The notes beneath the pieces are model-generated. The model was not told the origin of the DNA, ran no database searches, and was given only the letters and a program-made list of their open reading frames with translations. Of a DNA stretch of 64,000 bases, positions 19,505 to 29,282 are shown one piece after another; position 1 is the stretch's first letter; each line of letters begins with the position of its first letter. The translations under genes and the position numbers were made by a program. The stretch lies in contig JBBCJC010000005.1 of NCBI GenBank assembly GCA_037189525.1, positions 672,001 to 736,000 on the forward strand, written 5' to 3'. The stretch comes from Gemmatimonadales bacterium. GTDB lineage: Bacteria; Gemmatimonadota; Gemmatimonadetes; Gemmatimonadales; GWC2-71-9.

Positions 19505-19927
19505 CTACCTGAAATGGGGACAGCCCAACGCCCGCCGCAACACCTCGGGCGCTCGACCTTGGACACGGAACCTACCAACCAGCATTCCGCGGGAGGGACC
19601 TGCAACACACGCAGCGGAAACCGCCGCCGTCGGCAACGCAACGGGCGGGACGAGGGCCCAAACGCCCTCCTCCTCGGCCGCCGGTTCCCAGGCGAGGTCG
19701 TCCGCGGGACCGACTTCGACTAACCGCACTTCGCCGTCCGCACCGACCGGCACCGAAATGACGAACCAGGTCCGGCGCGCCGTAACCGGACAACGACCGA
19801 AGAACCCATGCAGCGCACCGTCCGCCACGGCGATATCGCCGCTGACGGAAATCCGAAACTGGTGTATCGCACCACAGTCGTTGCAGGGAATCGCGGCCAC
19901 GTTCATCATTTCCAGTGGAGCCAGCAT
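19505..19927 (-). CDS. Hypothetical protein with CxxC..H...C (Zn-ribbon-like) motif
   Basis: 'IPCNDCGAIH...GRCPVT'; GAGGA SD before ATG 19927 (alternative start 19978). Confidence 0.5.
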   Translation of the reverse strand: MLAPLEMMNVAAIPCNDCGAIHQFRISVSGDIAVADGALHGFFGRCPVTARRTWFVISVPVGADGEVRLVEVGPADDLAWEPAAEEEGVWALVPPVALPTAAVSAACVAGPSRGMLVGRFRVQGRAPEVLRRALGCPHFR

Positions 19928-19991
19928 ACCATCCTCACTTGGTCGGTGCGCACCGTCGTGATGCGCGCGGACATACATTAGGAATTCTTCG

Positions 19992-20021
19992 CGCAAACAA
20001 CAAGTTGGGAAAAAACCTTGC
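19992..20021. repeat. 30-bp motif, copy 1 (CGCAAACAACAAGTTGGGAAAAAACCTTGC)
   Basis: 29/30 identical to 22704-22733, same orientation. Confidence 0.85.
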
Positions 20022-20040: not shown

Positions 20041-20724
20041 CTAGGTCCGCGTCAATACGTCCTCGAGACTTGGCGCACCGGGTTGGCGCATCCGTTCCAG
20101 ACTCAGTTGCTGCAATGCACGAACATTGGTCACGCCGAGTGCTTTTTCGACCTTGACGCGATGGAACTCCACCGTCTTGGTCTCGACCCCGAGCAACTCG
20201 GCAATTTCCTGCGTCGTCTTGCCCAGGCCCAGCAGCGCAAACACCTGGCGCTGGCGGCGGGACAGGACTTCCAGCGGGTCGGTCAATCGACTGGTCGCCG
20301 ACTGGCGATCGTCTTCGACCGCGGGACGGGTCCGCGCTTCGAACTTCGGATTCCGATAGGTCCGGCCGGCCATCACGGTTTCGACGGCCGACAGCAAATC
20401 GGTATCGGAGGAGAGCTTGACCACGAAGCCCGCAGCTCCGGCGCGGAAGGCTTCGTCGACGTAGATCCGCTCCGTCTGCATCGACACCACCAGCACCTTG
20501 GTGTTCGGCGCCTCACGGCGAATGTCGCGGCAAATATCGAGGCCCAGACGATTGGGCATCAGGAGATCGAGCAGCACCAGATCGGGCGCGAGCGCATGGA
20601 CCTGCTCGAGCACCGCCGCACCGTCGTGCACCATCCCGATCACCTCGTACGTCGGTTCGAGCATGGCCTTGAGCCCCTGGCACACCAGGGCGTGATCGTC
20701 GGCCAGGAGGACACGGGCTCGCAT
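20041..20724 (-). CDS. NarL/FixJ-family response regulator (REC + LuxR HTH)
   Basis: 'LLADDH', 'LLDLLMP', 'GFVVK', 'LSRRQRQV...GKTTQEIAELLGVETKTVEFHR'. Confidence 0.95.
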   Translation of the reverse strand: MRARVLLADDHALVCQGLKAMLEPTYEVIGMVHDGAAVLEQVHALAPDLVLLDLLMPNRLGLDICRDIRREAPNTKVLVVSMQTERIYVDEAFRAGAAGFVVKLSSDTDLLSAVETVMAGRTYRNPKFEARTRPAVEDDRQSATSRLTDPLEVLSRRQRQVFALLGLGKTTQEIAELLGVETKTVEFHRVKVEKALGVTNVRALQQLSLERMRQPGAPSLEDVLTRT

Positions 20725-21500
20725 CAGATCGCTTCCCGTTCCGGAACCCAGGCAATGATCCGCGTACCGCGACCGGGCTTACTCACGATCGACAATTCGC
20801 CCTGAACGGCGCGAAGCCGCTCCGACATGCCTAACAGGCCGAGCCCCGCGCCGACACCTTCCGTCACGTTCATCCCGCGTCCTTTGTCCTCGATCTCGAG
20901 CACGATTCCGTCATCCTGCGACGTCAACCTGACTACAGCGGTGCGAATCTCGGCATGGCGCGTCACGTTGCGCAGGCCCTCCTGCGCAATCCGATAGAGC
21001 GCGAGCGATGCGGCATCGCCGACCCGGTCGAGCACCAGCATCGAGTCGGCGTAGACCTCGACGTTCAGGTCGTCCGACACCTTCATGTCGACCGCCAGTC
21101 CTCGGAGCGCCTGCACCAGCCCCAGGTGGTCGAGAATGGCCGGGTGCGCCCGCCGCGCCATGCTGCGCACCTCATCGGCCAAATCATTGAGCTCCTCACG
21201 CAATCCGTCGATCCGCTGGGTCACGGCCGATGTCGGGCTGGGAATCGCGCGTCCGAGCGCGCTCAATTCGCCTCCGATCAATGCCACCCGCTGAATCACG
21301 TCGTCGTGCAAGTCGCGCGCGATCCGCGACCGCTCCGCTTCCTGCGCTTCGACCATACCCTGGCTGAACCGCCGGCTCTGCTCTACCTGGCGCCGCTGGG
21401 CCACGACGATCACGCCGATGACGGTGCCAGCAAAAATCACCGTGACCATCGCGGTCAGGACGTAGACCCAGAAGATCGTCTCCGGACGCAGCGACGGCAT
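20724..21500 (-). CDS. HisKA_3 histidine kinase with a single N-terminal TM and no sensor domain
   Basis: 'QEAERSRIARDLHDDVIQ', 'RIAQEGLRNV', 'EDKGRG', 'GLGLLGMSER'; TGATG overlap with the regulator. Confidence 0.95.
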   Translation of the reverse strand: MPSLRPETIFWVYVLTAMVTVIFAGTVIGVIVVAQRRQVEQSRRFSQGMVEAQEAERSRIARDLHDDVIQRVALIGGELSALGRAIPSPTSAVTQRIDGLREELNDLADEVRSMARRAHPAILDHLGLVQALRGLAVDMKVSDDLNVEVYADSMLVLDRVGDAASLALYRIAQEGLRNVTRHAEIRTAVVRLTSQDDGIVLEIEDKGRGMNVTEGVGAGLGLLGMSERLRAVQGELSIVSKPGRGTRIIAWVPEREAI

Positions 21501-21506
21501 GGCGTC

Positions 21507-22202
21507 TCACCCCCCGGGTACGACGGATCGGCGTCCGCTTCGCCGACCGGCGGCTACCGGGCGGTCGATGTGCCAGACACCCCACGCAATCATCAGATAT
21601 CCCGCAATGGCCAGCACCAGGCGAGCGTGGTACGCCAGGTTGACCAAGTCGTTCCGATCGCCGAACAGGTTGGCCAGGAGCGGCTCGAACACGACGGTTG
21701 CTCCGTAGATCACCATCATGCCGGTACACAGCCAGAACCAGAACTCCGAGGTCCACCGCTCATAGGTGACCTGCACCCGGGTGACCAGGGTAAAGCCCGA
21801 CGCCGCCGTGACGAACAGGATCTGCACCGGCCCCGAGATCAGACTGAAGTCGGCCGCGATGCCCTGCAGATACTGGGCAACACTCCACGCCAGGACGTAC
21901 GCACCAATCGCTCCCAGCATGACCTGCCGCTGCCATCGTTTCGGCTGCCACGCGGCAAAGCCGGCCAACGCCAGCACCGTGGCTACCAGCTGCGGACCCT
22001 CCTGCAGCAAACGGGTTCGCACGCCCCGGAGGGACAGGGGTGCGGCGACCATGGCATAGGCGAGATAGACGGCGATCGACACGATGTGAAACCGGCCGCC
22101 TCGATCGAGGACCGACCATCGTCGCACACCCCAGAGGACCACCACGGCCATCATGGCCGTTTCGATCGCCGCGAGCCAGAAGTACGCCGCCGCCCCTTCC
22201 AT
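21507..22202 (-). CDS. Hypothetical multi-pass (about 7 TM) membrane protein
   Basis: Successive hydrophobic segments, 'FWFWLCTGMMVIY' motif; 6-8 bp gaps to both neighbours. Confidence 0.8.
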   Translation of the reverse strand: MEGAAAYFWLAAIETAMMAVVVLWGVRRWSVLDRGGRFHIVSIAVYLAYAMVAAPLSLRGVRTRLLQEGPQLVATVLALAGFAAWQPKRWQRQVMLGAIGAYVLAWSVAQYLQGIAADFSLISGPVQILFVTAASGFTLVTRVQVTYERWTSEFWFWLCTGMMVIYGATVVFEPLLANLFGDRNDLVNLAYHARLVLAIAGYLMIAWGVWHIDRPVAAGRRSGRRSVVPGG

Positions 22203-22210
22203 AGCGCCGA

Positions 22211-22615
22211 TTAGAAGTTGAAGACGCCGTTGATGTCCCCGCAGTACGGCGGGCACTTCCACGGCGTATCCCCAATAATGCCCTTCAGGATGTCATTGCC
22301 CTCGACGTCGACGCCGCAGAACATCAGCGTCACCGTGCCTTTGGCATCGACACCGGGATAGAAGCGCAGCCCCACACAGCCCTTCTGGGCCAGGATGTCC
22401 TTGAAAATGTTGGCCCCATAGGCCGAGGGCGCGAGTTCCCCGGTTCGGCCGGCGAATTTCTTGAGGTAGACCTCACGCATACGGCGAGCCTGGGCATGCG
22501 TCAGGCGATGCTTGCGAGTGCCGAACGGCGGCACCCGACGCTTGGGTTGCTTGGCCGGTGTTTGGGCCGCCGGCAGCTTCGATGCCGCAGTGCGCTTCGA
22601 GGGTTTGCGAACCAT
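22211..22615 (-). CDS. Small hypothetical protein with 'CVGLRFY' and C-terminal 'CPPYC' motifs
   Basis: GAGGAG SD 8 nt upstream, strong host codon bias, first gene of the four-gene cassette. Confidence 0.82.
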   Translation of the reverse strand: MVRKPSKRTAASKLPAAQTPAKQPKRRVPPFGTRKHRLTHAQARRMREVYLKKFAGRTGELAPSAYGANIFKDILAQKGCVGLRFYPGVDAKGTVTLMFCGVDVEGNDILKGIIGDTPWKCPPYCGDINGVFNF

Positions 22616-22703
22616 CGTCCATACTCCTCACACGAGTCGATTCAGTCTTGCGCGATGAACTCCGTCGAACCTGGCCCCACAGCACAAAGCTCCCAAGCTG
22701 CCA

Positions 22704-22733
22704 CGCAAAGAACAAGTTGGGAAAAAACCTTGC
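22704..22733. repeat. 30-bp motif, copy 2 (CGCAAAGAACAAGTTGGGAAAAAACCTTGC)
   Basis: 29/30 identical to 19992-20021. Confidence 0.85.
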
Positions 22734-22797: not shown

Positions 22798-22823
22798 AAT
22801 AATTGAGTATATATTCAATTATT
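22798..22823. promoter_or_regulatory. 26-bp palindrome, probable TetR operator
   Basis: AATAATTGAGTAT|ATATTCAATTATT (one mismatch), ~60 bp upstream of the TetR-RND operon. Confidence 0.7.
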
Positions 22824-22882: not shown

Positions 22883-23548
22883 TTGAGTAAAGACACCGAA
22901 CAGCCGGTGGAAGCCTCCGATCGGCAACCGCGCTGGCGACGCCGACCCGCCGAGCGACGCAGTGAAATCGTCGATGCGGCGGCGGGGGTATTCGGAGAGC
23001 GCGGCTACGACCACGCCACGCTGACCGATATCGCCAAGCGCGCCGGTGTCTGCGTCGGCACCGTGGCGCACTACTTCGGCAGCAAGGAAGACCTCTTCCG
23101 CGCGGCCCTGTTCGACCGGGTTCACGAGGAGTTCGCCAGGGAAGAGGCCATCCTGGCCGGACATCAGGGTTCCTATCGGAGCCTGATCGAAGGCTTGCTG
23201 CAGCGCATGGCCGACCGGGTCCGGCGATTCGGAACCGGCGACCTGCTGTTCACCGGCCTGGCGAAGGCCAGCACATTTCCGCAAGCCGGCCACTTGCTCT
23301 GTACCGAGGTCGGCGACCGCTGGCGCCGACTCTTCTCCGGGGCAATCGAGGCCGGCATCCAGCAAGGTGAGTTCCGCCGCCTCGACCCCGATCGAACCGC
23401 CCGCGTCCTGGCGAGCGCGCTGATGGGCATGCTCGTCGCTCATGCGCGCCTGTCACGATTCGATCCGCGCAGCCCGACCGCCGATCAAATGATCGAGACC
23501 TATCTCGACCTGGTAAGCCACGCTCTTCTCGAGCCCAGAACACCCTGA
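22883..23548 (+). CDS. TetR/AcrR-family regulator
   Basis: 'EIVDAAAGVFGERGYDHATLTDIAKRAGVCVGTVAHYFGSKEDLF'; start uncertain (TTG). Confidence 0.92.
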   Translation: MSKDTEQPVEASDRQPRWRRRPAERRSEIVDAAAGVFGERGYDHATLTDIAKRAGVCVGTVAHYFGSKEDLFRAALFDRVHEEFAREEAILAGHQGSYRSLIEGLLQRMADRVRRFGTGDLLFTGLAKASTFPQAGHLLCTEVGDRWRRLFSGAIEAGIQQGEFRRLDPDRTARVLASALMGMLVAHARLSRFDPRSPTADQMIETYLDLVSHALLEPRTP

Positions 23549-23551
23549 ACC

Positions 23552-24679
23552 ATGTTACCCACTCATCGCTACCCGCTTGCTGCGCTTGTCCTCGCTTTAC
23601 CGCTGACGGCCTGCCAGTCACCGCCGCCGCCCGTCATGCCGCCCACCGAAGTGACCGTGGTCGACGTCGCCCCCCAAACGCTCGGCGAATCCATCGAGTT
23701 CATGGGCGCCGTCGAGGCGTACCGGAACGTCGAGATCCGGTCGCAGGTCGCCGGGATCGTACTCGAGCGGCCTTTCACAGAAGGCGCCGCCGTGCAGGCG
23801 GGTCAGGTCCTCTATCGGATCGATCCGCTCCAGTACGACGCCGCCTGGCGAAGCGCTCGGAGCCGTCTCGCCGAGTCTGAAGCACGGCTGGCCAACGCCG
23901 AGCGGAACCTGGCGCGACTCAAGCCGCTCCTGGCCGACAACGCCGTCGCCCGGCGCGACGTCGACGACGCCGATGCCGAGCTGGCGCGCGCCCGCGCTTC
24001 GGCGGACGACATGCGCGCTGCGGTCGACCGCGCCAAGAAAGATCTGGACGAAGCCACCGTCCGGGCGCCGATTGCCGGCCGCGTCGGACGCGCCCATCTC
24101 CAGATCGGAGCGCGCGTCACCGGCCCCGGCGACCTCCTGACCACGATCGACGTGATCGATCCGGTCTATGTCTCGTTCCGGCCGAGCGCGGCGCAGACAC
24201 TGGCCTGGCGGCGCGACCCCGTAGCGGGCAAAGCCCTCCTGCCCGGAGGCACAGCCCGGATCGAGCTGACCCTGCCCGATGGCTCCGCCTTTCCGCGGCA
24301 GGGCCGGATCGATTTCGTCGACCCGGTCGTCGATCCGGCCACCGGAACGCAGCAGTATCGGGCAACCTTTGCCAACGGCGAGCGCCTCCTGGTGCCGGGA
24401 CAGTTCGTCCGGGCGTCGCTGCGCGGCTTGCAGCGCGTCAACACCCTGGCCGTCCCGCAGCGAGCGGTCCAACAGGTGCTCAACCGGCAGTTCATCTATG
24501 TGGTGGGCGCCGGTGACACGGTGCGCGCCCATGATGTTCGCACCGGCGCGCTGCTCGACAGCCTGTGGATCATCGAGGAGGGGATTACCGCCGGAGACCG
24601 CGTCGTGGTCGACGGGGTGCAGAAGATCGGTCCCGGTGCGGTGGTCAAGCCCGTAACGGCGGCACGGCCGGGCACATGA
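23552..24679 (+). CDS. RND efflux periplasmic adaptor (AcrA/MexA-like), lipoprotein
   Basis: Lipobox LTAC; 'EIRSQVAG', 'VRAPIAGRVG', 'VDPATGT', 'VPQRAV'. Confidence 0.95.
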   Translation: MLPTHRYPLAALVLALPLTACQSPPPPVMPPTEVTVVDVAPQTLGESIEFMGAVEAYRNVEIRSQVAGIVLERPFTEGAAVQAGQVLYRIDPLQYDAAWRSARSRLAESEARLANAERNLARLKPLLADNAVARRDVDDADAELARARASADDMRAAVDRAKKDLDEATVRAPIAGRVGRAHLQIGARVTGPGDLLTTIDVIDPVYVSFRPSAAQTLAWRRDPVAGKALLPGGTARIELTLPDGSAFPRQGRIDFVDPVVDPATGTQQYRATFANGERLLVPGQFVRASLRGLQRVNTLAVPQRAVQQVLNRQFIYVVGAGDTVRAHDVRTGALLDSLWIIEEGITAGDRVVVDGVQKIGPGAVVKPVTAARPGT

Positions 24680-27600
24680 GTACTCCCAACGTCCTCCCGC
24701 CTACCGAGCGGGAATACCTATTCATCCGGCGCCCCGTCACGGCCGCCGTGATTTCGATCGTGATCGTGCTGCTCGGCCTGTTCGCCATGCGGAGCCTGCC
24801 GATCGCCCGTTTTCCCCAGATCACCCCGCCAGCGATTCAGGTCACGGCTGTCTTTCCGGGCGCCACTGCCGAAGACGTGGCCCAGGCGGTTGCGGCCCCG
24901 ATCGAGCAGCAATTGTCGGGACTCAACGGCCTGCTCTACTTCAAGTCGGCCAATTCGTCCGACGGCGTGATGAATCTCGAAATCGTGTTCGACATCTCGC
25001 GCGACCAGGACCTGGCCGCCGTCGACGTCCAGAACGCGGTCAAGCTGGCCGAGCCGCAGTTGCCGGAAGAGGTGCGGCGGAACGGCATCGTGATTCAGAA
25101 GTCGCAGAGCGACATCCTGATGGTCGGGTCGCTCACCTCGGACGATCCGAATCACAGCATCGAGTTCATTACGAACTACGCCAAGCTCTACGTCGAGGAC
25201 GAACTCAAGCGGATTCCCGGCGTCGGCAACGCCCAGGCGTTCGGCGGCCGCGAGTTTGCCATGCAGATCAGCCTCGACCCGGATCGGATGGCGCGGCTGG
25301 GCGTCACGGTCCAGGAAGTGGCCGCTGCCATTCGCGACCAGAACGCCACCAACCCCGCCGGTCGGCTCGGCCGGCAACCGTCGCCCGAATCGACCGAGCT
25401 GACCTTTGCCGTGACCACCCGCGGACGGCTCGCGACTGCTGCGCAGTTCGACAGCGTGGTGGTGCGCGCGCGGACCGACGGCTCCCTGATCCGGGTCGGC
25501 GACGTCGGCAGCGCCAATCTCGGGGCCCGGAGCTACGATGCTACCGGTCGCCTGAACGGCAAACCGACCACCAACTTCCTGGTCAATCAGCGTCCGGGCG
25601 CCAACGCGCTCGACGTCAAGCAGGCCATCGACGACCGGATGGCCGAGTTGAGCCGGACCTTCCCGCCCGGCTTCCAATGGCAGGCCGCGTTCGACACCAC
25701 GCCGTTCATCCGTGAGTCGATCACGGAAGTCGTCAAGACACTGCTCGAAGCAATGGTGCTGGTGACGCTGGTCGTCTTCATCTTCCTGCAGAGCTGGCGC
25801 GCAACCCTGATCCCGCTCCTGGCCGTCCCGGTCAGCATCATCGGCACCTTCCTGGGCCTCCAGGCCATGGGCATGTCGATCAACACGCTGACGCTCTTCG
25901 GCCTGGTGCTCGCGATCGGTATCGTCGTCGACGACGCCATTGTGGTCATCGAAAACGTCGAACGGATCATGGCCGAAGAGCACGTGCCTCCTCGAGAAGC
26001 GGCCAATCGGGCCATGAAACAGGTCTCGGGCGCGCTGATCGCCATCGTCCTGGTGCTCTGCGCCGTGTTCGTGCCGGTTGCCTTCATCGGCGGCGTGACG
26101 GGCGAGTTCTACAAGCAGTTTGCCGTGACCATCGTGATCTCGGTGGTGCTGTCCGGCATCGTCGCGCTGACCCTGACGCCGGCGTTGTGCGCCGTCCTGT
26201 TGACGCATTCGAACGAGGACAGCACCAACAAGTACGCCCGGAAGTTCAACACCTGGTTCCATCGGGTCACCGATCGCTACCTGGGCGGCGTCGGCCGTCT
26301 GGTGGGTCGGCCGCGGCGCTGGCTGGCCATCTTCGGTGTGATGACGGTGCTCACCGTCGTGCTGGCCCGCCGGGTACCGACCGGGTTCCTGCCGACCGAA
26401 GACAAGGGCTTCTTCGTGGTCTCGATCCAGCTGCCGGACGCCGCGTCCCTGCCCCGGACCGAGGCCTTCGTCGAGCAGGTCGAAGCCATGCTCGCCAAGG
26501 AACCGGCCGTGACCAACATCACGGCCATGGTCGGACTCGACATCCTGACCCGGGCGACCCAGACCAACAGCGCCACCATGTTCGTGCGACTGGCCCCCTG
26601 GGAGGAGCGCAACGCGAATCAGAGCGTCGATGCCATCCTGGCCCGTACCAACGGCGCGCTCTGGGGCATGAAGGAAGCGATTGCCTTCGGCTTCAACTTC
26701 CCCGAGGTCCCGGGGCTCGGTACCTCCGCAGGACTCGAGCTCAATCTGCAGGCGCGTAGCGGCAGTGACATCCGCCACTTCGCGCAGCAGGCCCGTTCCT
26801 TCGTCGCGGACGCCAATCAGCTTCCGGAAATCCAGGGCGCCAACACCACGATCCGCGCCGATGTGCCCCAGGTGTATGTCGATATCGACCGGGATGCTGC
26901 CGCGGCCAAGGGTGTCAGCATCGGCTCCATTTCATCGACCATGCAGGCGCTCCTGTCGACCCTGTATGTCAACGACTTCAACCTCTATGGCCGGACCTGG
27001 CGGGTGCAGGCCGACGCGGGAGCGGCGTTCCGGCAGCATCCGGAAGACATTGCCCGCCTCTACGTCCGGGGACACGGCGGCGAGATGGTGCCGCTTGGTT
27101 CGCTGATCCGCACCGAAATGCGCACCGGGCCGAGTATGGTCACCCGGTTCAATGGATTTCCTTCGGCCATGGTGACGGCCACGCCCAAGCCGGGTAAGAG
27201 TTCGGGCGAAATGCTCGATGCGGTCGAGAACCTGGTGGCCGAGAAGTACGCGGCCGACGGGATCGGCTCGGCGTTCAGCGGCCAGTCGTTTCAGGAACGC
27301 CGCACCAGCGGTGAAGCCGGCCTGGTCTTCGTACTCGGCCTGATCCTGGTCTTCCTGGTGCTTGCCGCGCTGTACGAAAGCTGGGCAATTCCCTTTGCGG
27401 TCGTGCTGGGCGTACCGTTCGGCGTTGCAGGCGCGTATTTGGGGGTCTGGCTGCGCGGTATCCCGAGCGACATCTACTTCACGGTCGGCCTCATCACCGT
27501 CGTCGGCCTGGCCGCCAAGAACGCGATTCTGATCGTCGAGTTCGCGACGGAACTCAGGCGCAAAGGCCTTGCCGTTCGTGAAGCGGCCATGGAAGCGGCC

Positions 27601-27843
27601 CGGGAACGTTTCCGCCCCATCCTGATGACCTCGTTCGCCTTCATTCTGGGCGTGCTGCCGCTGGTGATCTCGGGCGGCGCGGGCGCGGCCGGCCGGCACT
27701 CGCTCGGCACCGGCGTGTTCTTCGGAATGCTGGCGGCCACGATCATCGGTGTCTTCTTCATTCCGCTCTTCTTCTTCGTGATCCAGCGGCTGACCGAGCG
27801 GAAACAGTCCGTGCCGGCCGGCGCCGTGGAGGAACGATCATGA
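24676..27843 (+). CDS. RND multidrug efflux permease (AcrB/MexB-like)
   Basis: 'FIRRPV', 'AIGIVVDDAIVVIENVER', 'GLAAKNAILIVEFA', 'RFRPILMTS'; ATGA overlap. Confidence 0.97.
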   Translation: MSTPNVLPPTEREYLFIRRPVTAAVISIVIVLLGLFAMRSLPIARFPQITPPAIQVTAVFPGATAEDVAQAVAAPIEQQLSGLNGLLYFKSANSSDGVMNLEIVFDISRDQDLAAVDVQNAVKLAEPQLPEEVRRNGIVIQKSQSDILMVGSLTSDDPNHSIEFITNYAKLYVEDELKRIPGVGNAQAFGGREFAMQISLDPDRMARLGVTVQEVAAAIRDQNATNPAGRLGRQPSPESTELTFAVTTRGRLATAAQFDSVVVRARTDGSLIRVGDVGSANLGARSYDATGRLNGKPTTNFLVNQRPGANALDVKQAIDDRMAELSRTFPPGFQWQAAFDTTPFIRESITEVVKTLLEAMVLVTLVVFIFLQSWRATLIPLLAVPVSIIGTFLGLQAMGMSINTLTLFGLVLAIGIVVDDAIVVIENVERIMAEEHVPPREAANRAMKQVSGALIAIVLVLCAVFVPVAFIGGVTGEFYKQFAVTIVISVVLSGIVALTLTPALCAVLLTHSNEDSTNKYARKFNTWFHRVTDRYLGGVGRLVGRPRRWLAIFGVMTVLTVVLARRVPTGFLPTEDKGFFVVSIQLPDAASLPRTEAFVEQVEAMLAKEPAVTNITAMVGLDILTRATQTNSATMFVRLAPWEERNANQSVDAILARTNGALWGMKEAIAFGFNFPEVPGLGTSAGLELNLQARSGSDIRHFAQQARSFVADANQLPEIQGANTTIRADVPQVYVDIDRDAAAAKGVSIGSISSTMQALLSTLYVNDFNLYGRTWRVQADAGAAFRQHPEDIARLYVRGHGGEMVPLGSLIRTEMRTGPSMVTRFNGFPSAMVTATPKPGKSSGEMLDAVENLVAEKYAADGIGSAFSGQSFQERRTSGEAGLVFVLGLILVFLVLAALYESWAIPFAVVLGVPFGVAGAYLGVWLRGIPSDIYFTVGLITVVGLAAKNAILIVEFATELRRKGLAVREAAMEAARERFRPILMTSFAFILGVLPLVISGGAGAAGRHSLGTGVFFGMLAATIIGVFFIPLFFFVIQRLTERKQSVPAGAVEERS

Positions 27844-29282
27844 TCCGCTCGCTCCGCATTCTCATTCCGGTCGCCCTGGCGGCCGGCTGCGCCGTGGGTC
27901 CGTCGCCGCGCGTGCGGCCGGAACCGATTGCGCCGCTCCGAACCGCAGCCGGGGATGATGCTCCCCGGCCGCTGCTCGACTCACTCGTCACGGCCAACCT
28001 GCCCGCCACCGGCCCGCTCGTGCTGGCCGACGATCCGGCGGCGGTCGCGCTCCAGTGGCTCGATGTCGTCAACGATCCGGCGCTCGCAACCTTGGTACGT
28101 ACGGCGGTCGAACGGAATCTCGACCTGCAGGCCGCCGCAGCCCGAGTGCGCGAGTATCGCGCTCTCTTCGGCGCCGCCCGGGGCGAACTGCTGCCCCGGC
28201 TCGATGCCAACGGGTCCTATAGTACCAACCAGGCCGTCTTCGGCTCGCTCGGTGCGATGCAGTACGACGCCGTGCGGATCTCGGCCGACCTGCAATGGGA
28301 GCTCGATTTCTGGGGCAAGCTGCGGCGGCAGACCCAGGCCGCGCGCTTCGACTGGGGCGCCCGGGAGGACGACCGTCAGGCGATCCTGCTCAGCCTGGTG
28401 AGCGATGTGGTCACCGCGTACCTCGAGTTGCGCGAACTGGACGAAAACGTCCGCGTCACCGAGCAGACGTTGGCGAGTCGCGAAGCAACCCTGCGCCTGG
28501 CTCGTCAGCGCTTTGCGCAGGGGGTCATTTCCGAGCTCGACGTCCGGCAGTTCGAAGCCGAACTGGCCGGTCCCGCGGCGCGAGTGGCCGAGTTCATTCG
28601 GTTGCGGACGCAGAAGGAGAACCAGCTCTCGGTGCTGCTGGGCCAGGCGCCTCAGCCCATCGTGCGCGGATTACCGCTCGATTCGACCGTCCGGAAGATC
28701 ACGCCGCCCGATTCGATCTCGTCGAGCCTCCTGGCCCGTCGGCCCGATGTGATGCGGGCCACCAAGTCCTGGTCGGCCGCGGCAGCACGGGTCGGCGTCG
28801 CGGTCGGAAACCGGTTGCCGCGCATTGCGCTGACCGGATCGTACGGCACCCAGCAGCCCGATTTCAGCGGCCTGTTTGCCACCAACGGCGAGGTCTATGC
28901 CGCCGGTGTCAACGTCTCGCTGCCGCTGTTTACCGGCGGACGCCTGCTCAACCAGCAGCGGGCGGCGGCGGCACGCGCCGATCAGGCGCGGATCGACTAC
29001 GAGCGCACGGTGCTGACCGCGCTGCGCGAAGCCAACGACGCGCTCTCGTCGGTCCGTCTCTCACGCCAGCAGTTGGCCGCGCAGCTGACTCAGACCCAGG
29101 CGCTCCGGCGCGCCGTTACGCTGGCTGAGCAGCGCTATGAAGCGGGGATTTCGAGTTACCTCGAGGTGCTCGATGCCCAGCGCGGCCTCTATGCAGCCGA
29201 ACTGGGCTTAGTCCAGACGCAGCGTCAGACGCTGACCACGACGGTCCAGTTGTACAAGGCGTTCGGCGGCAACTGGCAGTAG
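27840..29282 (+). CDS. Efflux outer membrane factor lipoprotein (OprM/NodT-like)
   Basis: Lipobox LAAGC; 'WELDFWG', 'LLARRPDV', 'SYLEVLDAQR', 'LYKAFGGNW'. Confidence 0.95.
   Translation: MIRSLRILIPVALAAGCAVGPSPRVRPEPIAPLRTAAGDDAPRPLLDSLVTANLPATGPLVLADDPAAVALQWLDVVNDPALATLVRTAVERNLDLQAAAARVREYRALFGAARGELLPRLDANGSYSTNQAVFGSLGAMQYDAVRISADLQWELDFWGKLRRQTQAARFDWGAREDDRQAILLSLVSDVVTAYLELRELDENVRVTEQTLASREATLRLARQRFAQGVISELDVRQFEAELAGPAARVAEFIRLRTQKENQLSVLLGQAPQPIVRGLPLDSTVRKITPPDSISSSLLARRPDVMRATKSWSAAAARVGVAVGNRLPRIALTGSYGTQQPDFSGLFATNGEVYAAGVNVSLPLFTGGRLLNQQRAAAARADQARIDYERTVLTALREANDALSSVRLSRQQLAAQLTQTQALRRAVTLAEQRYEAGISSYLEVLDAQRGLYAAELGLVQTQRQTLTTTVQLYKAFGGNWQ

Follow-up and report, generated by a model that had tools for sequence, protein, structure and literature searches.

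How does a histidine kinase that has no sensory domain of its own receive a signal? The question is raised by a four-gene cassette at positions 20041–22615 of the window, the whole 64,000-nucleotide stretch of DNA analyzed here, which comes from a Gemmatimonadales-type genome. Two large uncatalogued protein families appear in it as a portable histidine-kinase input present in at least two phyla, and a regulator box with predicted targets, a cas operon among them, is described here as new. Little has been described of cell-to-cell signaling in Gemmatimonadota and Bacteroidota, the literature searched having yielded nothing on the subject, and the openly accessible main texts searched contained no description of the cassette. 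The locus opens such signaling to experiment, since it offers a reporter promoter (box, -35 and -10), the cognate regulator and named targets, among which is a complete type I-E CRISPR-Cas operon.

The cassette consists of four intact, closely spaced ORFs on the minus strand, as had been stated in a preliminary description, which took the unit to comprise four genes and overlooked a fifth co-oriented one (19505–19927). The first gene (22211–22615) encodes the CPPxC protein, of 134 amino acids, with a basic tail and an alpha/beta domain of about 100 residues; the second (21507–22202), a stand-alone 7TM protein of 231 amino acids, predicted to be N-out/C-in; the third (20724–21500), a single-pass HisKA_3 histidine kinase of 258 amino acids; and the fourth (20041–20724), a NarL/LuxR-family response regulator of 227 amino acids with the recognition helix KTVEFH. 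Gaps of 8 nt and 6 nt separate the first three genes, and start and stop overlap at the last junction. A 30-nt repeat, 97% identical, occurs once 5' of the cassette and once 5' of the fifth gene. The neighboring galE, TetR and RND genes were discarded as parts of the module, genes behind the regulator being conserved only within the genus.

Kinase and regulator, whose genes adjoin, constitute a HisKA_3/NarL two-component system. The kinase contains HisKA_3 and HATPase_c domains, an intact H-box and one N-terminal TM segment with about 8 residues outside the membrane before it; the single TM and the lack of a sensory domain had been recognized correctly. The regulator contains Response_reg and GerE domains, the receiver Asp and a LuxR HTH. 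With no extracytoplasmic sensor domain and a conserved, co-encoded membrane partner, the kinase would be of the intramembrane-sensing type, with an accessory protein that may bind and control it. LiaFSR, SaePQRS and UhpABC are intramembrane-sensing kinase systems with accessory proteins; the cassette shares with such systems a kinase without an outside sensor, a co-encoded membrane partner and, by prediction, autoregulation. LiaS and UhpB likewise belong to the HisKA_3 class and work with regulators of the NarL type, and both models gave hits below cut-off. The cassette differs in its one N-terminal TM segment, where theirs have two or more, in its partner, an uncatalogued stand-alone 7TM protein instead of a transporter or LiaF, in the addition of a folded CPPxC protein without fold match, and in its interchangeable kinase class. 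BceS-BceAB is also presented, in excerpts of PMC8534201, as an intramembrane-sensing kinase with an accessory protein.

A degenerate CTAGG-N6-CCTAG palindrome is the predicted box of the regulator, to which it is tied only by position and by covariation of recognition helix and palindrome across cassettes. The copy upstream of the cassette (22713–22730, minus strand) runs into the -35 hexamer TTGTTC (22710–22715), followed by a -10-like GAGCTT (22687–22692). A second copy (20001–20018, minus strand) abuts the -35 TTGTTG (19998–20003) of a predicted fifth-gene promoter with a 17-nt spacer and the -10 TAATGT (19975–19980). The window genome holds 4 strong boxes, compared with 0–1 for each shuffled matrix, and four same-genus genomes hold 4–5 each (control, 0). 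A matching box lies 5' of the cassette in all 4 of these, and with 2 mismatches in G504; of 121 genomes of the family only 4 have the box, and G504, the sole one outside the genus, turned out to hold the cassette. The element xAxxxT follows the -35 by 16–18 nt at 23 of 25 boxes, against 0–7 of 25 in six control windows. The cassette operon thus has a predicted autoregulatory promoter, at which box and spacing would fit an activator site. Symmetric palindromes in other genera are leads only, because target direction is ambiguous.

The linkage of the cassette genes is far beyond chance. The CPPxC gene has a 7TM gene as its neighbor in 36/36 Gemmatimonadota loci and in 43/43 loci on the Bacteroidota side (40 called by HMM and 3 by hydropathy), in line with the earlier statement that similar cassettes occur in Bacteroidota. 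A single-pass kinase comes next in 32/36 and 36/43 loci, respectively, kinases and regulators being counted with phmmer and Pfam; a motif-based tally, which undercounts, was set aside. The reciprocal 7TM search returned the same 30 of 201 phylum genomes together with two of borderline significance (E about 3e-4), and a scan of the genome collection with a single protein query gave 4 loci. In Gemmatimonadota and Bacteroidota alike, the two unassigned genes have been kept alongside single-pass kinases and regulators, and neither matched a characterized family. Kinase bodies vary across loci (HisKA_3, PAS-HisKA or hybrid, PAS-HisKA replacing HisKA_3 in 11 loci) whereas the one N-terminal TM segment is constant, so the CPPxC/7TM pair behaves as a portable input. 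Some genomes carry extra 7TM copies, and two cassettes read 7TM-7TM-kinase-regulator with the CPPxC gene elsewhere in the genome, an arrangement that a trans-acting ligand would permit. The input pair diverges faster than its partners in three of four genus relatives, with identities of 39–51% (CPPxC) and 30–48% (7TM) against 61–66% (kinase) and 70–75% (regulator). CPPxC distances showed a partial r of 0.37 with those of the 7TM protein, 0.18 with the kinase and -0.14 with the regulator, the pairs being non-independent. Faster evolution than kinases is general for small and membrane proteins, a caveat for the pairing argument. No relatives were found on the viral contigs searched.

The 7TM protein was modeled as seven helices (pLDDT 92.3) in a GPCR/rhodopsin-like arrangement. 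All 50 matches listed in the fold search were GPCR-fold or rhodopsin chains, the best having Z 13.3, rmsd 4.3 and 214 aligned residues, a score range that unrelated helical bundles can also reach (Z 13); with Foldseek, no structure reached E ≤ 0.001 (best E 0.011). The gene had been called unannotatable, and indeed the protein matches no Pfam or NCBIfam family; none of 32 family members matched Pfam, nor the 7TMR-DISM or HisKA_7TM profiles at E ≤ 0.1. According to the model, a seven-helix N-out/C-in bundle would be common to the cassette protein, 7TMR-DISM/HisKA_7TM proteins, microbial rhodopsins and GPCRs. Unlike 7TMR-DISM proteins and rhodopsins, it has no Pfam match, no retinal-type TM7 lysine (absent in the window copy, with any TM7 Lys in only 9/32 members) and no fusion to signaling or other domains among 8,000 longer candidate proteins, a weak test.

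The CPPxC protein carries the motifs ILAQKGCVGLRFY, GVDVEGND and CPPYC. It has no hydrophobic signal peptide, as had been noted, and its N-terminal tail is basic; CPPYC, previously placed at the very end, is followed by nine further residues. The family amounts to 2,644 clusters at 50% identity, with conserved positions H36, R84, Y86, D108 and C121-P-P-x-C125, and matches no Pfam or NCBIfam family. Its model, a folded domain, found no fold match among 48,161 chains (best Z 2.7) and nothing at E ≤ 0.001 with Foldseek against PDB and BFVD, and a profile search of PDB sequences reached at best E 0.34; the thioredoxin fold was neither among the matches listed in the fold searches nor indicated by Pfam. 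Such missing matches do not prove a new fold.

Starting from gene content, linkage in two phyla, fold predictions, a box set at promoter distance and the genes that follow it, we propose, with a probability of about 45%, that the 7TM protein and the kinase helix form a split receptor, that the folded CPPxC protein is its ligand and that the regulator switches on the cassette along with the fifth gene and the cas operon. To reach the outer face, CPPxC would pass through Sec in homologues that carry a signal peptide; signal-less copies, including that of the window, would be freed by lysis or take another route. Its cysteine-looped C-terminal tail would then contact the 7TM protein, which would shift the single helix of the kinase, packed on it as an eighth helix; the phosphorylated regulator would bind the box beside the -35 and activate transcription, with positive feedback and induction of secreted, competition and anti-phage genes. 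If the ligand model is true, bacteria would possess a GPCR-shaped receptor that reads a folded protein, signals to a kinase by way of a single helix and has a connection to anti-phage immunity.

Linkage, portability of the input, receptor shape, promoter data and joint divergence of CPPxC and 7TM argue for the split-receptor proposal. Action at the outer face is favored by signal-peptide-like N-termini in 22/44 Bacteroidota-side CPPxC genes, and a role of the tail by tandem two-domain proteins, whose last domain has CPxxC in 65/76 cases and whose first has it in 36/76. Among 125 CPPxC proteins with signal-peptide-like N-termini, 116 have a net-positive start, a junction of a small residue with Gln occurs in 55 and a lipobox-like motif in 19; a tree count of signal-peptide gains was left out, since it came from a quick tree with several wrong automatic row labels (L045, L046, L101, L102, L106, L109, L113, L114 and L127). 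Against the proposal, a signal peptide is absent in 37/38 Gemmatimonadota CPPxC genes, the window copy included, and the cassette encodes no exporter or protease, which leaves the export route unexplained. The conserved polar residues (H36 in 318/384 domains, R84 in 403/427, Y86 in 387/427, D108 in 346/424) would suit a binding or catalytic site better than a protein that is a ligand and nothing else. The overlap of Z 13 with unrelated bundles, the negative Foldseek result, the few defense targets, a possibly relic cas3 promoter and a box linked to the regulator only by position and covariation also count against it. Prediction of a complex between CPPxC 25–134 and 7TM 1–215 from 32-row alignments is uninformative, its score of 0.00 in both runs being accompanied by controls that did not fold. 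The earlier interpretation, with the 7TM protein as the kinase's split receptor, is supported in part, by co-conservation, the lack of a characterized family for either gene, receptor shape and the predicted autoregulatory promoter.

The parallel with agr and comQXPA drawn in the preliminary description applies to the layout, built from unrelated parts; the cassette is neither system. In ComQXPA of Bacillus subtilis, kinase (HisKA_3) and regulator (NarL-type) are the last of four genes, the input half evolves fast and activator sites are palindromic; the cassette has the same features, its activator sites by prediction. By contrast, no family match points to a ComQ prenyltransferase, the small protein is a folded domain of about 100 amino acids whereas ComX is a short peptide precursor, and the receptor helices lie on a separate protein, the kinase lacking the polytopic sensor of ComP. 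The agr operon of staphylococci is autoregulated and encodes a small Cys-containing product, the AgrB peptidase and a LytTR regulator. Shared with it are such a product, a membrane protein, a kinase and a regulator in one operon, together with predicted autoregulation and secreted-protein outputs; an AgrB peptidase was not recognized in the 7TM protein (neither Pfam nor NCBIfam matches it, and its family lacks an invariant residue), and the regulator is NarL-type (GerE/LuxR HTH), not LytTR. The cassette kinase has one TM segment against six in AgrC, which bind the peptide according to excerpts of PMC8534201.

Rather than a ligand from outside, CPPxC may be a cell-autonomous co-sensor, a reading that we hold possible but doubtful: it would bind metal or report thiol redox through C121, C125, H36 and perhaps C80, and dock on the 7TM protein of the same cell, at the cytoplasmic face for signal-less copies and in the periplasm for exported ones. 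The module would then be an accessory-sensor system like LiaFSR or SaePQRS, free of cell-to-cell signaling. Sco-type copper chaperones use CxxxC and a distal His as their ligands; residues of this kind are conserved in CPPxC and could form such a set. Domains without CxxxC have lost H36 (18/59 vs 47/323) and C80 (29/59 vs 76/323) more often than those with it, many 7TM proteins have a Cys at the inner TM7 end (92%, 70% and 40% in three groups, whose labels are noisy), and the window CPPxC has no export signal. However, H36 is retained in 41/59 domains lacking CxxxC, the window 7TM protein has no TM7-end Cys, none of the 14 boxes found outside the cassette is followed by a gene for metal or redox homeostasis, and this reading requires a single domain to bind related receptors now on one face, now on the other.

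The same conserved H, R, Y and D could instead serve an enzyme, the domain either synthesizing a small diffusible signal or cleaving away the cysteine-looped tail that it carries, and the product would bind the 7TM protein. The location of the protein would then be irrelevant, and a short tail after CPxxC (median 9 residues; ≤15 in 200/258), with the motif preferentially kept in the last tandem domain, fits a precursor. We nevertheless regard this as unlikely: C80, the sole spare candidate nucleophile, occurs in only 303/427 domains, the tail is modeled as packed on the domain (pLDDT about 83), and the neighborhood shows no conserved modifying enzyme or transporter. The earlier view of the small protein as the signal was not established: it is a folded domain with a tail modeled as packed, unlike the unstructured precursors of the AgrD/ComX type, and the cassette has no processing enzyme or exporter.

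That CPPxC and/or the 7TM protein keep the kinase off until envelope stress releases it (CpxP/LiaF/SaePQ logic) is very improbable, for although autoregulation is predicted, two cassettes lack the CPPxC gene and accessory proteins commonly repress their kinase (excerpts of PMC8534201), the fast, in-step divergence of the input pair and the extra 7TM copies fit recognition better than a fixed brake, and the predicted targets are not envelope-repair genes.

Under the split-receptor proposal, the outputs would be the genes behind the box. In the window genome it adjoins a sigma-70 -35 element 5' of the cassette, of the fifth gene and of a type I-E cas operon that is complete; among relatives, a WYL/HmaA defense locus, an RHS protein and secreted proteins have it upstream. 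An extended version of the proposal, which we consider rather unlikely, is a protein pheromone or kin-lysis alarm: a cysteine-tailed protein of new fold would act on a GPCR-shaped receptor and through a single-pass kinase, in allele-specific pairs, to turn on, in the lineage of the window, CRISPR-Cas and other defense and competition genes, CPPxC being secreted or spilled by lysing kin in its Gemmatimonadota and Bacteroidota hosts. Acyl-homoserine lactones are the signals in quorum-sensing control of CRISPR in Serratia and Pseudomonas. Such control of CRISPR-Cas in both genera is described in excerpts of PMC8450108; a signaling regulator upstream of a type I-E cas operon is the shared feature, predicted here at one promoter. 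Outside the cassette there are 14 boxes, and defense genes follow just 2 of them. Along 42 nt the cas3 promoter is similar to that of the cassette, and it may be no more than a relic of copying.

The fifth gene (19505–19927, minus strand) is a predicted direct target of the regulator and encodes about 140 amino acids, its start being placed from the promoter position; the ATG at 19978 was rejected because it lies within the -10 element. It was found in 5/201 phylum genomes, all of the same genus and directly behind the cassette, and also behind the G504 cassette. Its product has an invariant, putatively zinc-finger-like CxxCxxxH...C and a C-terminal LRRALGCP.

The four minus-strand genes at 20041–22615 very probably form one signalling unit with the seven-helix membrane protein (7TM) as its input. 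Their layout, proposed in the preliminary description, was borne out when the ORFs in the window were re-read. The genes for the 134-aa CPPxC protein and the 231-aa 7TM protein occur once each in the host genome (4.65 Mb, 98% complete). The window lies on contig C5 of this genome, and Gemmatimonadales supply the closest named homologues. Both proteins, the second of them previously called unannotatable, lack Pfam and NCBIfam matches at E ≤ 1, and family searches with the 32-member sets of CPPxC and of 7TM proteins gave no match at a useful level. CPPYC, described as terminal, is followed by nine residues. By Pfam, the kinase contains HisKA_3 and HATPase_c domains, with a single N-terminal transmembrane helix, and the regulator contains receiver and GerE domains.

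CPPxC profile matches were found in 30 of 201 Gemmatimonadota genomes (16 of 98 genera), and every one of the 39 matching places was fetched, as 36 loci. The expected co-conservation was observed: the 7TM gene was next in 36/36 loci, four times broken or truncated, and kinase and regulator were present in 32, the others being L042, L055, L060 (insertion sequence) and L051 (contig end). A reciprocal 7TM profile search returned the same 30 genomes and two marginal ones; because this profile was built from the genomes it matched, only its absences are informative. The suggestion of similar cassettes in Bacteroidota was also borne out, with CPPxC matches in 31 of 301 genomes from the phylum of a Bacteroidota-titled record. 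There, the best 43 of 52 places (nine weakest left out) gave 41 loci, and a separate scan added two. All 43 contained a 7TM or 5–7-TM gene and 36 a kinase (26 of HisKA_3 type, 10 of PAS/HisKA type), with one more probable; the single N-terminal helix was kept in the kinases examined. The constant 7TM neighbour, together with the change of kinase type, indicates from gene order that CPPxC and 7TM are a portable input pair. The cassette is real and widespread, and is built from two uncatalogued families. Cassettes L037, L038, L046 and L070 adjoin tRNA-like sequences (read by eye) in unrelated gene surroundings, which suggests mobility. Two or three 7TM genes stand in tandem in L048, L108, L123, L128, L196 and L197. 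Bacteroidota-style cassettes in Akkermansia-titled records (L094, L095), from a genome with six CPPxC matches, possibly reflect mis-binning or transfer.

The 7TM model has seven helices (pLDDT 92.3), with charge bias placing loops 1, 3, 5 and the C-terminus inside. GPCR-fold or rhodopsin chains made up 50/50 of the structural matches listed, at Z 10–13, a range that unrelated helical bundles can also reach; the best Foldseek E was 0.011. The protein lacks the TM7 lysine, no residue is invariant among 32 members, and mean pairwise identity is 22% among the 29 cassettes compared. These features make a rhodopsin or AgrB-like enzyme less likely and fit a variable receptor. The cassette would work like accessory-protein two-component systems, with predicted quorum-sensing-style autoregulation in addition. 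It belongs to neither agr nor ComQXPA, as expected from its supposedly unrelated parts, nor to the 7TMR-DISM group, and its 7TM falls outside the rhodopsins.

The CPPxC family comprised 2,644 clusters at E ≤ 0.001 when 1.84 billion representatives were searched with its profile. Across 427 distinct domains H36, A43, L75, G82, R84, Y86, D108, C121, P122, P123 and C125 are conserved, and 303 of the domains have C80. The predicted structure (pLDDT 82.8) shows the cysteine tail packed against a compact alpha/beta domain, indicating a folded domain and not a short pheromone precursor; fold searches with this model gave no match. Homologue P0080 bears a precomputed Pfam tag, PF28057, that did not reappear with the local copy of Pfam; a related family may exist in a newer release.

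Our preferred reading of the cassette, at a probability a little under one half, is a split receptor whose ligand is a protein, the role of the small protein being the weaker step. The CPPxC protein would act from outside as ligand of the 7TM, a reading favoured by exported homologues, a last-domain preference for CPxxC, paired fast divergence and cassettes without a CPPxC gene. Among 145 new top hits, 69 were single-domain, 37 with a signal-peptide-like start and 67 with CPxxC; in the 76 tandem two-domain proteins, CPxxC was found in 65 last versus 36 first domains. The signal peptides were identified from hydropathy by a simple rule and not with a dedicated predictor, and they look genuine because, of 125, 116 have a net-positive start, 55 a small-residue–Gln junction and 19 a lipobox-like site. 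Such a junction is the Bacteroidota +1 Gln rule. Signal-less proteins begin where the mature part of exported forms begins, and at L110 the 7TM gene is flanked by one CPPxC gene of each type. Two cassettes (L196 of G064, L197 of G160) read 7TM-7TM-kinase-regulator, the CPPxC gene lying elsewhere in both genomes. An export signal is missing in 37/38 Gemmatimonadota copies and polar residues are conserved in the domain, which favours a co-sensor, on balance unlikely, or an enzyme or self-processing precursor, unlikelier again. An inhibitor, left in place by a passage of PMC8534201 stating that accessory proteins often repress their own kinase, is the least credible role. For an outside ligand, lysis of kin is a conceivable route of release; it would square copies lacking a signal peptide with binding at the outer face and with defence genes as output.

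A 30-nt repeat stands 5' of the cassette and 5' of a fifth co-oriented gene behind the regulator (19505–19927); its copies of the box, a degenerate CTAGG-N6-CCTAG palindrome, lie at 22713–22730 and 20001–20018. With a matrix trained on relatives, four strong sites emerged in the host genome, before the cassette, the fifth gene, cas3 (contig C13) and a secreted-type 311-aa gene (C3), versus 0–1 at equal score per column-shuffled matrix (n=10). Four same-genus genomes had 4–5 sites each (control 0). The pattern occurred in only 4/121 family genomes; G504, its sole bearer outside the genus, proved on later search to contain the cassette with the fifth gene, and two motif-less control genomes did not. 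The TTG starting the -35 at the box end was built into the search pattern. The -10 had no part in that pattern; xAxxxT followed 16–18 nt away in 23/25 sites versus 0–7/25 in six control windows, orthologous sites not being independent. Lux-box-type activator sites have this placement next to the -35. Strong palindromes preceded 10/30 cassettes versus 1/150 shuffles, the host window scoring best for another, AT-rich palindrome. Recognition helix and palindrome vary in step across cassettes (KT/AVE(F/Y)H with CTAGG-N6-CCTAG, EATITFH with CTATAAGATCCTATAG, NTVAFH with CTACCA-N4-TGGTAG), from which we infer that the box belongs to the cassette's own regulator. The cassette supplies a ready reporter. 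An AT-rich palindrome (22798–22823, also in G125), between the cassette and a divergent TetR gene (22883–23548), is likely the operator through which TetR acts on the RND efflux operon (23552–29282). In G023, whose cassette is frameshifted, near-identical ~295-nt units, each with CTAGG-N6-CCTAG, are in tandem at a contig end (L170 1751–3057), with another copy elsewhere (L172 1902) and 16 palindromic sites in the genome.

Cassette or fifth gene lies behind 11 of the 25 sites. Defence loci account for only 2 of the 14 other predicted targets. One host box lies ~50 nt ahead of the probable cas3 start in a complete type I-E operon (C13, 1–12243: cas3, cas8e, cas11, cas7, cas5, cas6e, cas1, cas2, then an array of 55 repeats), with a further array at the end of C1; profile matches confirmed Cas3, Cas8e and Cas7e, and the other genes were read from order and sequence. 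GC is 57–61% over most of the operon and upstream flank versus ~66% genome-wide. The cas3 promoter may be a copy, since it resembles the relatives' cassette promoter over 42 nt. In a relative, G195, a box precedes a WYL gene, to which a second WYL-like ORF (by eye), a gene with a sacsin domain and a match to the HmaA helicase over its full length are presumably co-transcribed; together they likely form a defence island (L089 266–10007). Passages of PMC8450108 report that quorum sensing raises CRISPR-Cas defence at high density. The Rcs stress response is likewise reported to control it; the predicted CRISPR link alone is therefore no proof of cell-to-cell signalling.

Other predicted targets are an RHS-repeat protein, a TonB-dependent receptor, a Ser/Thr kinase, a metallo-beta-lactamase-fold protein, three secreted-type proteins without assigned family and three small ORFs with membrane anchors, of which one has a TAP-like peptidase behind it; one site is interrupted by an insertion sequence. 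A G504 target (L180 1543–2418), a 292-aa protein without Pfam match, has NNCYNY, FHWYR and WSHKPG motifs whose pattern suggests a Cys-His-Asp enzyme. Small secreted-type cysteine-rich peptides of 91 and 74 aa, without Pfam match, are encoded at L147 1592–1867 and L097 3289–3513; one of these genes follows a palindrome close to a cassette, and the other comes immediately after a CPPxC-7TM pair.
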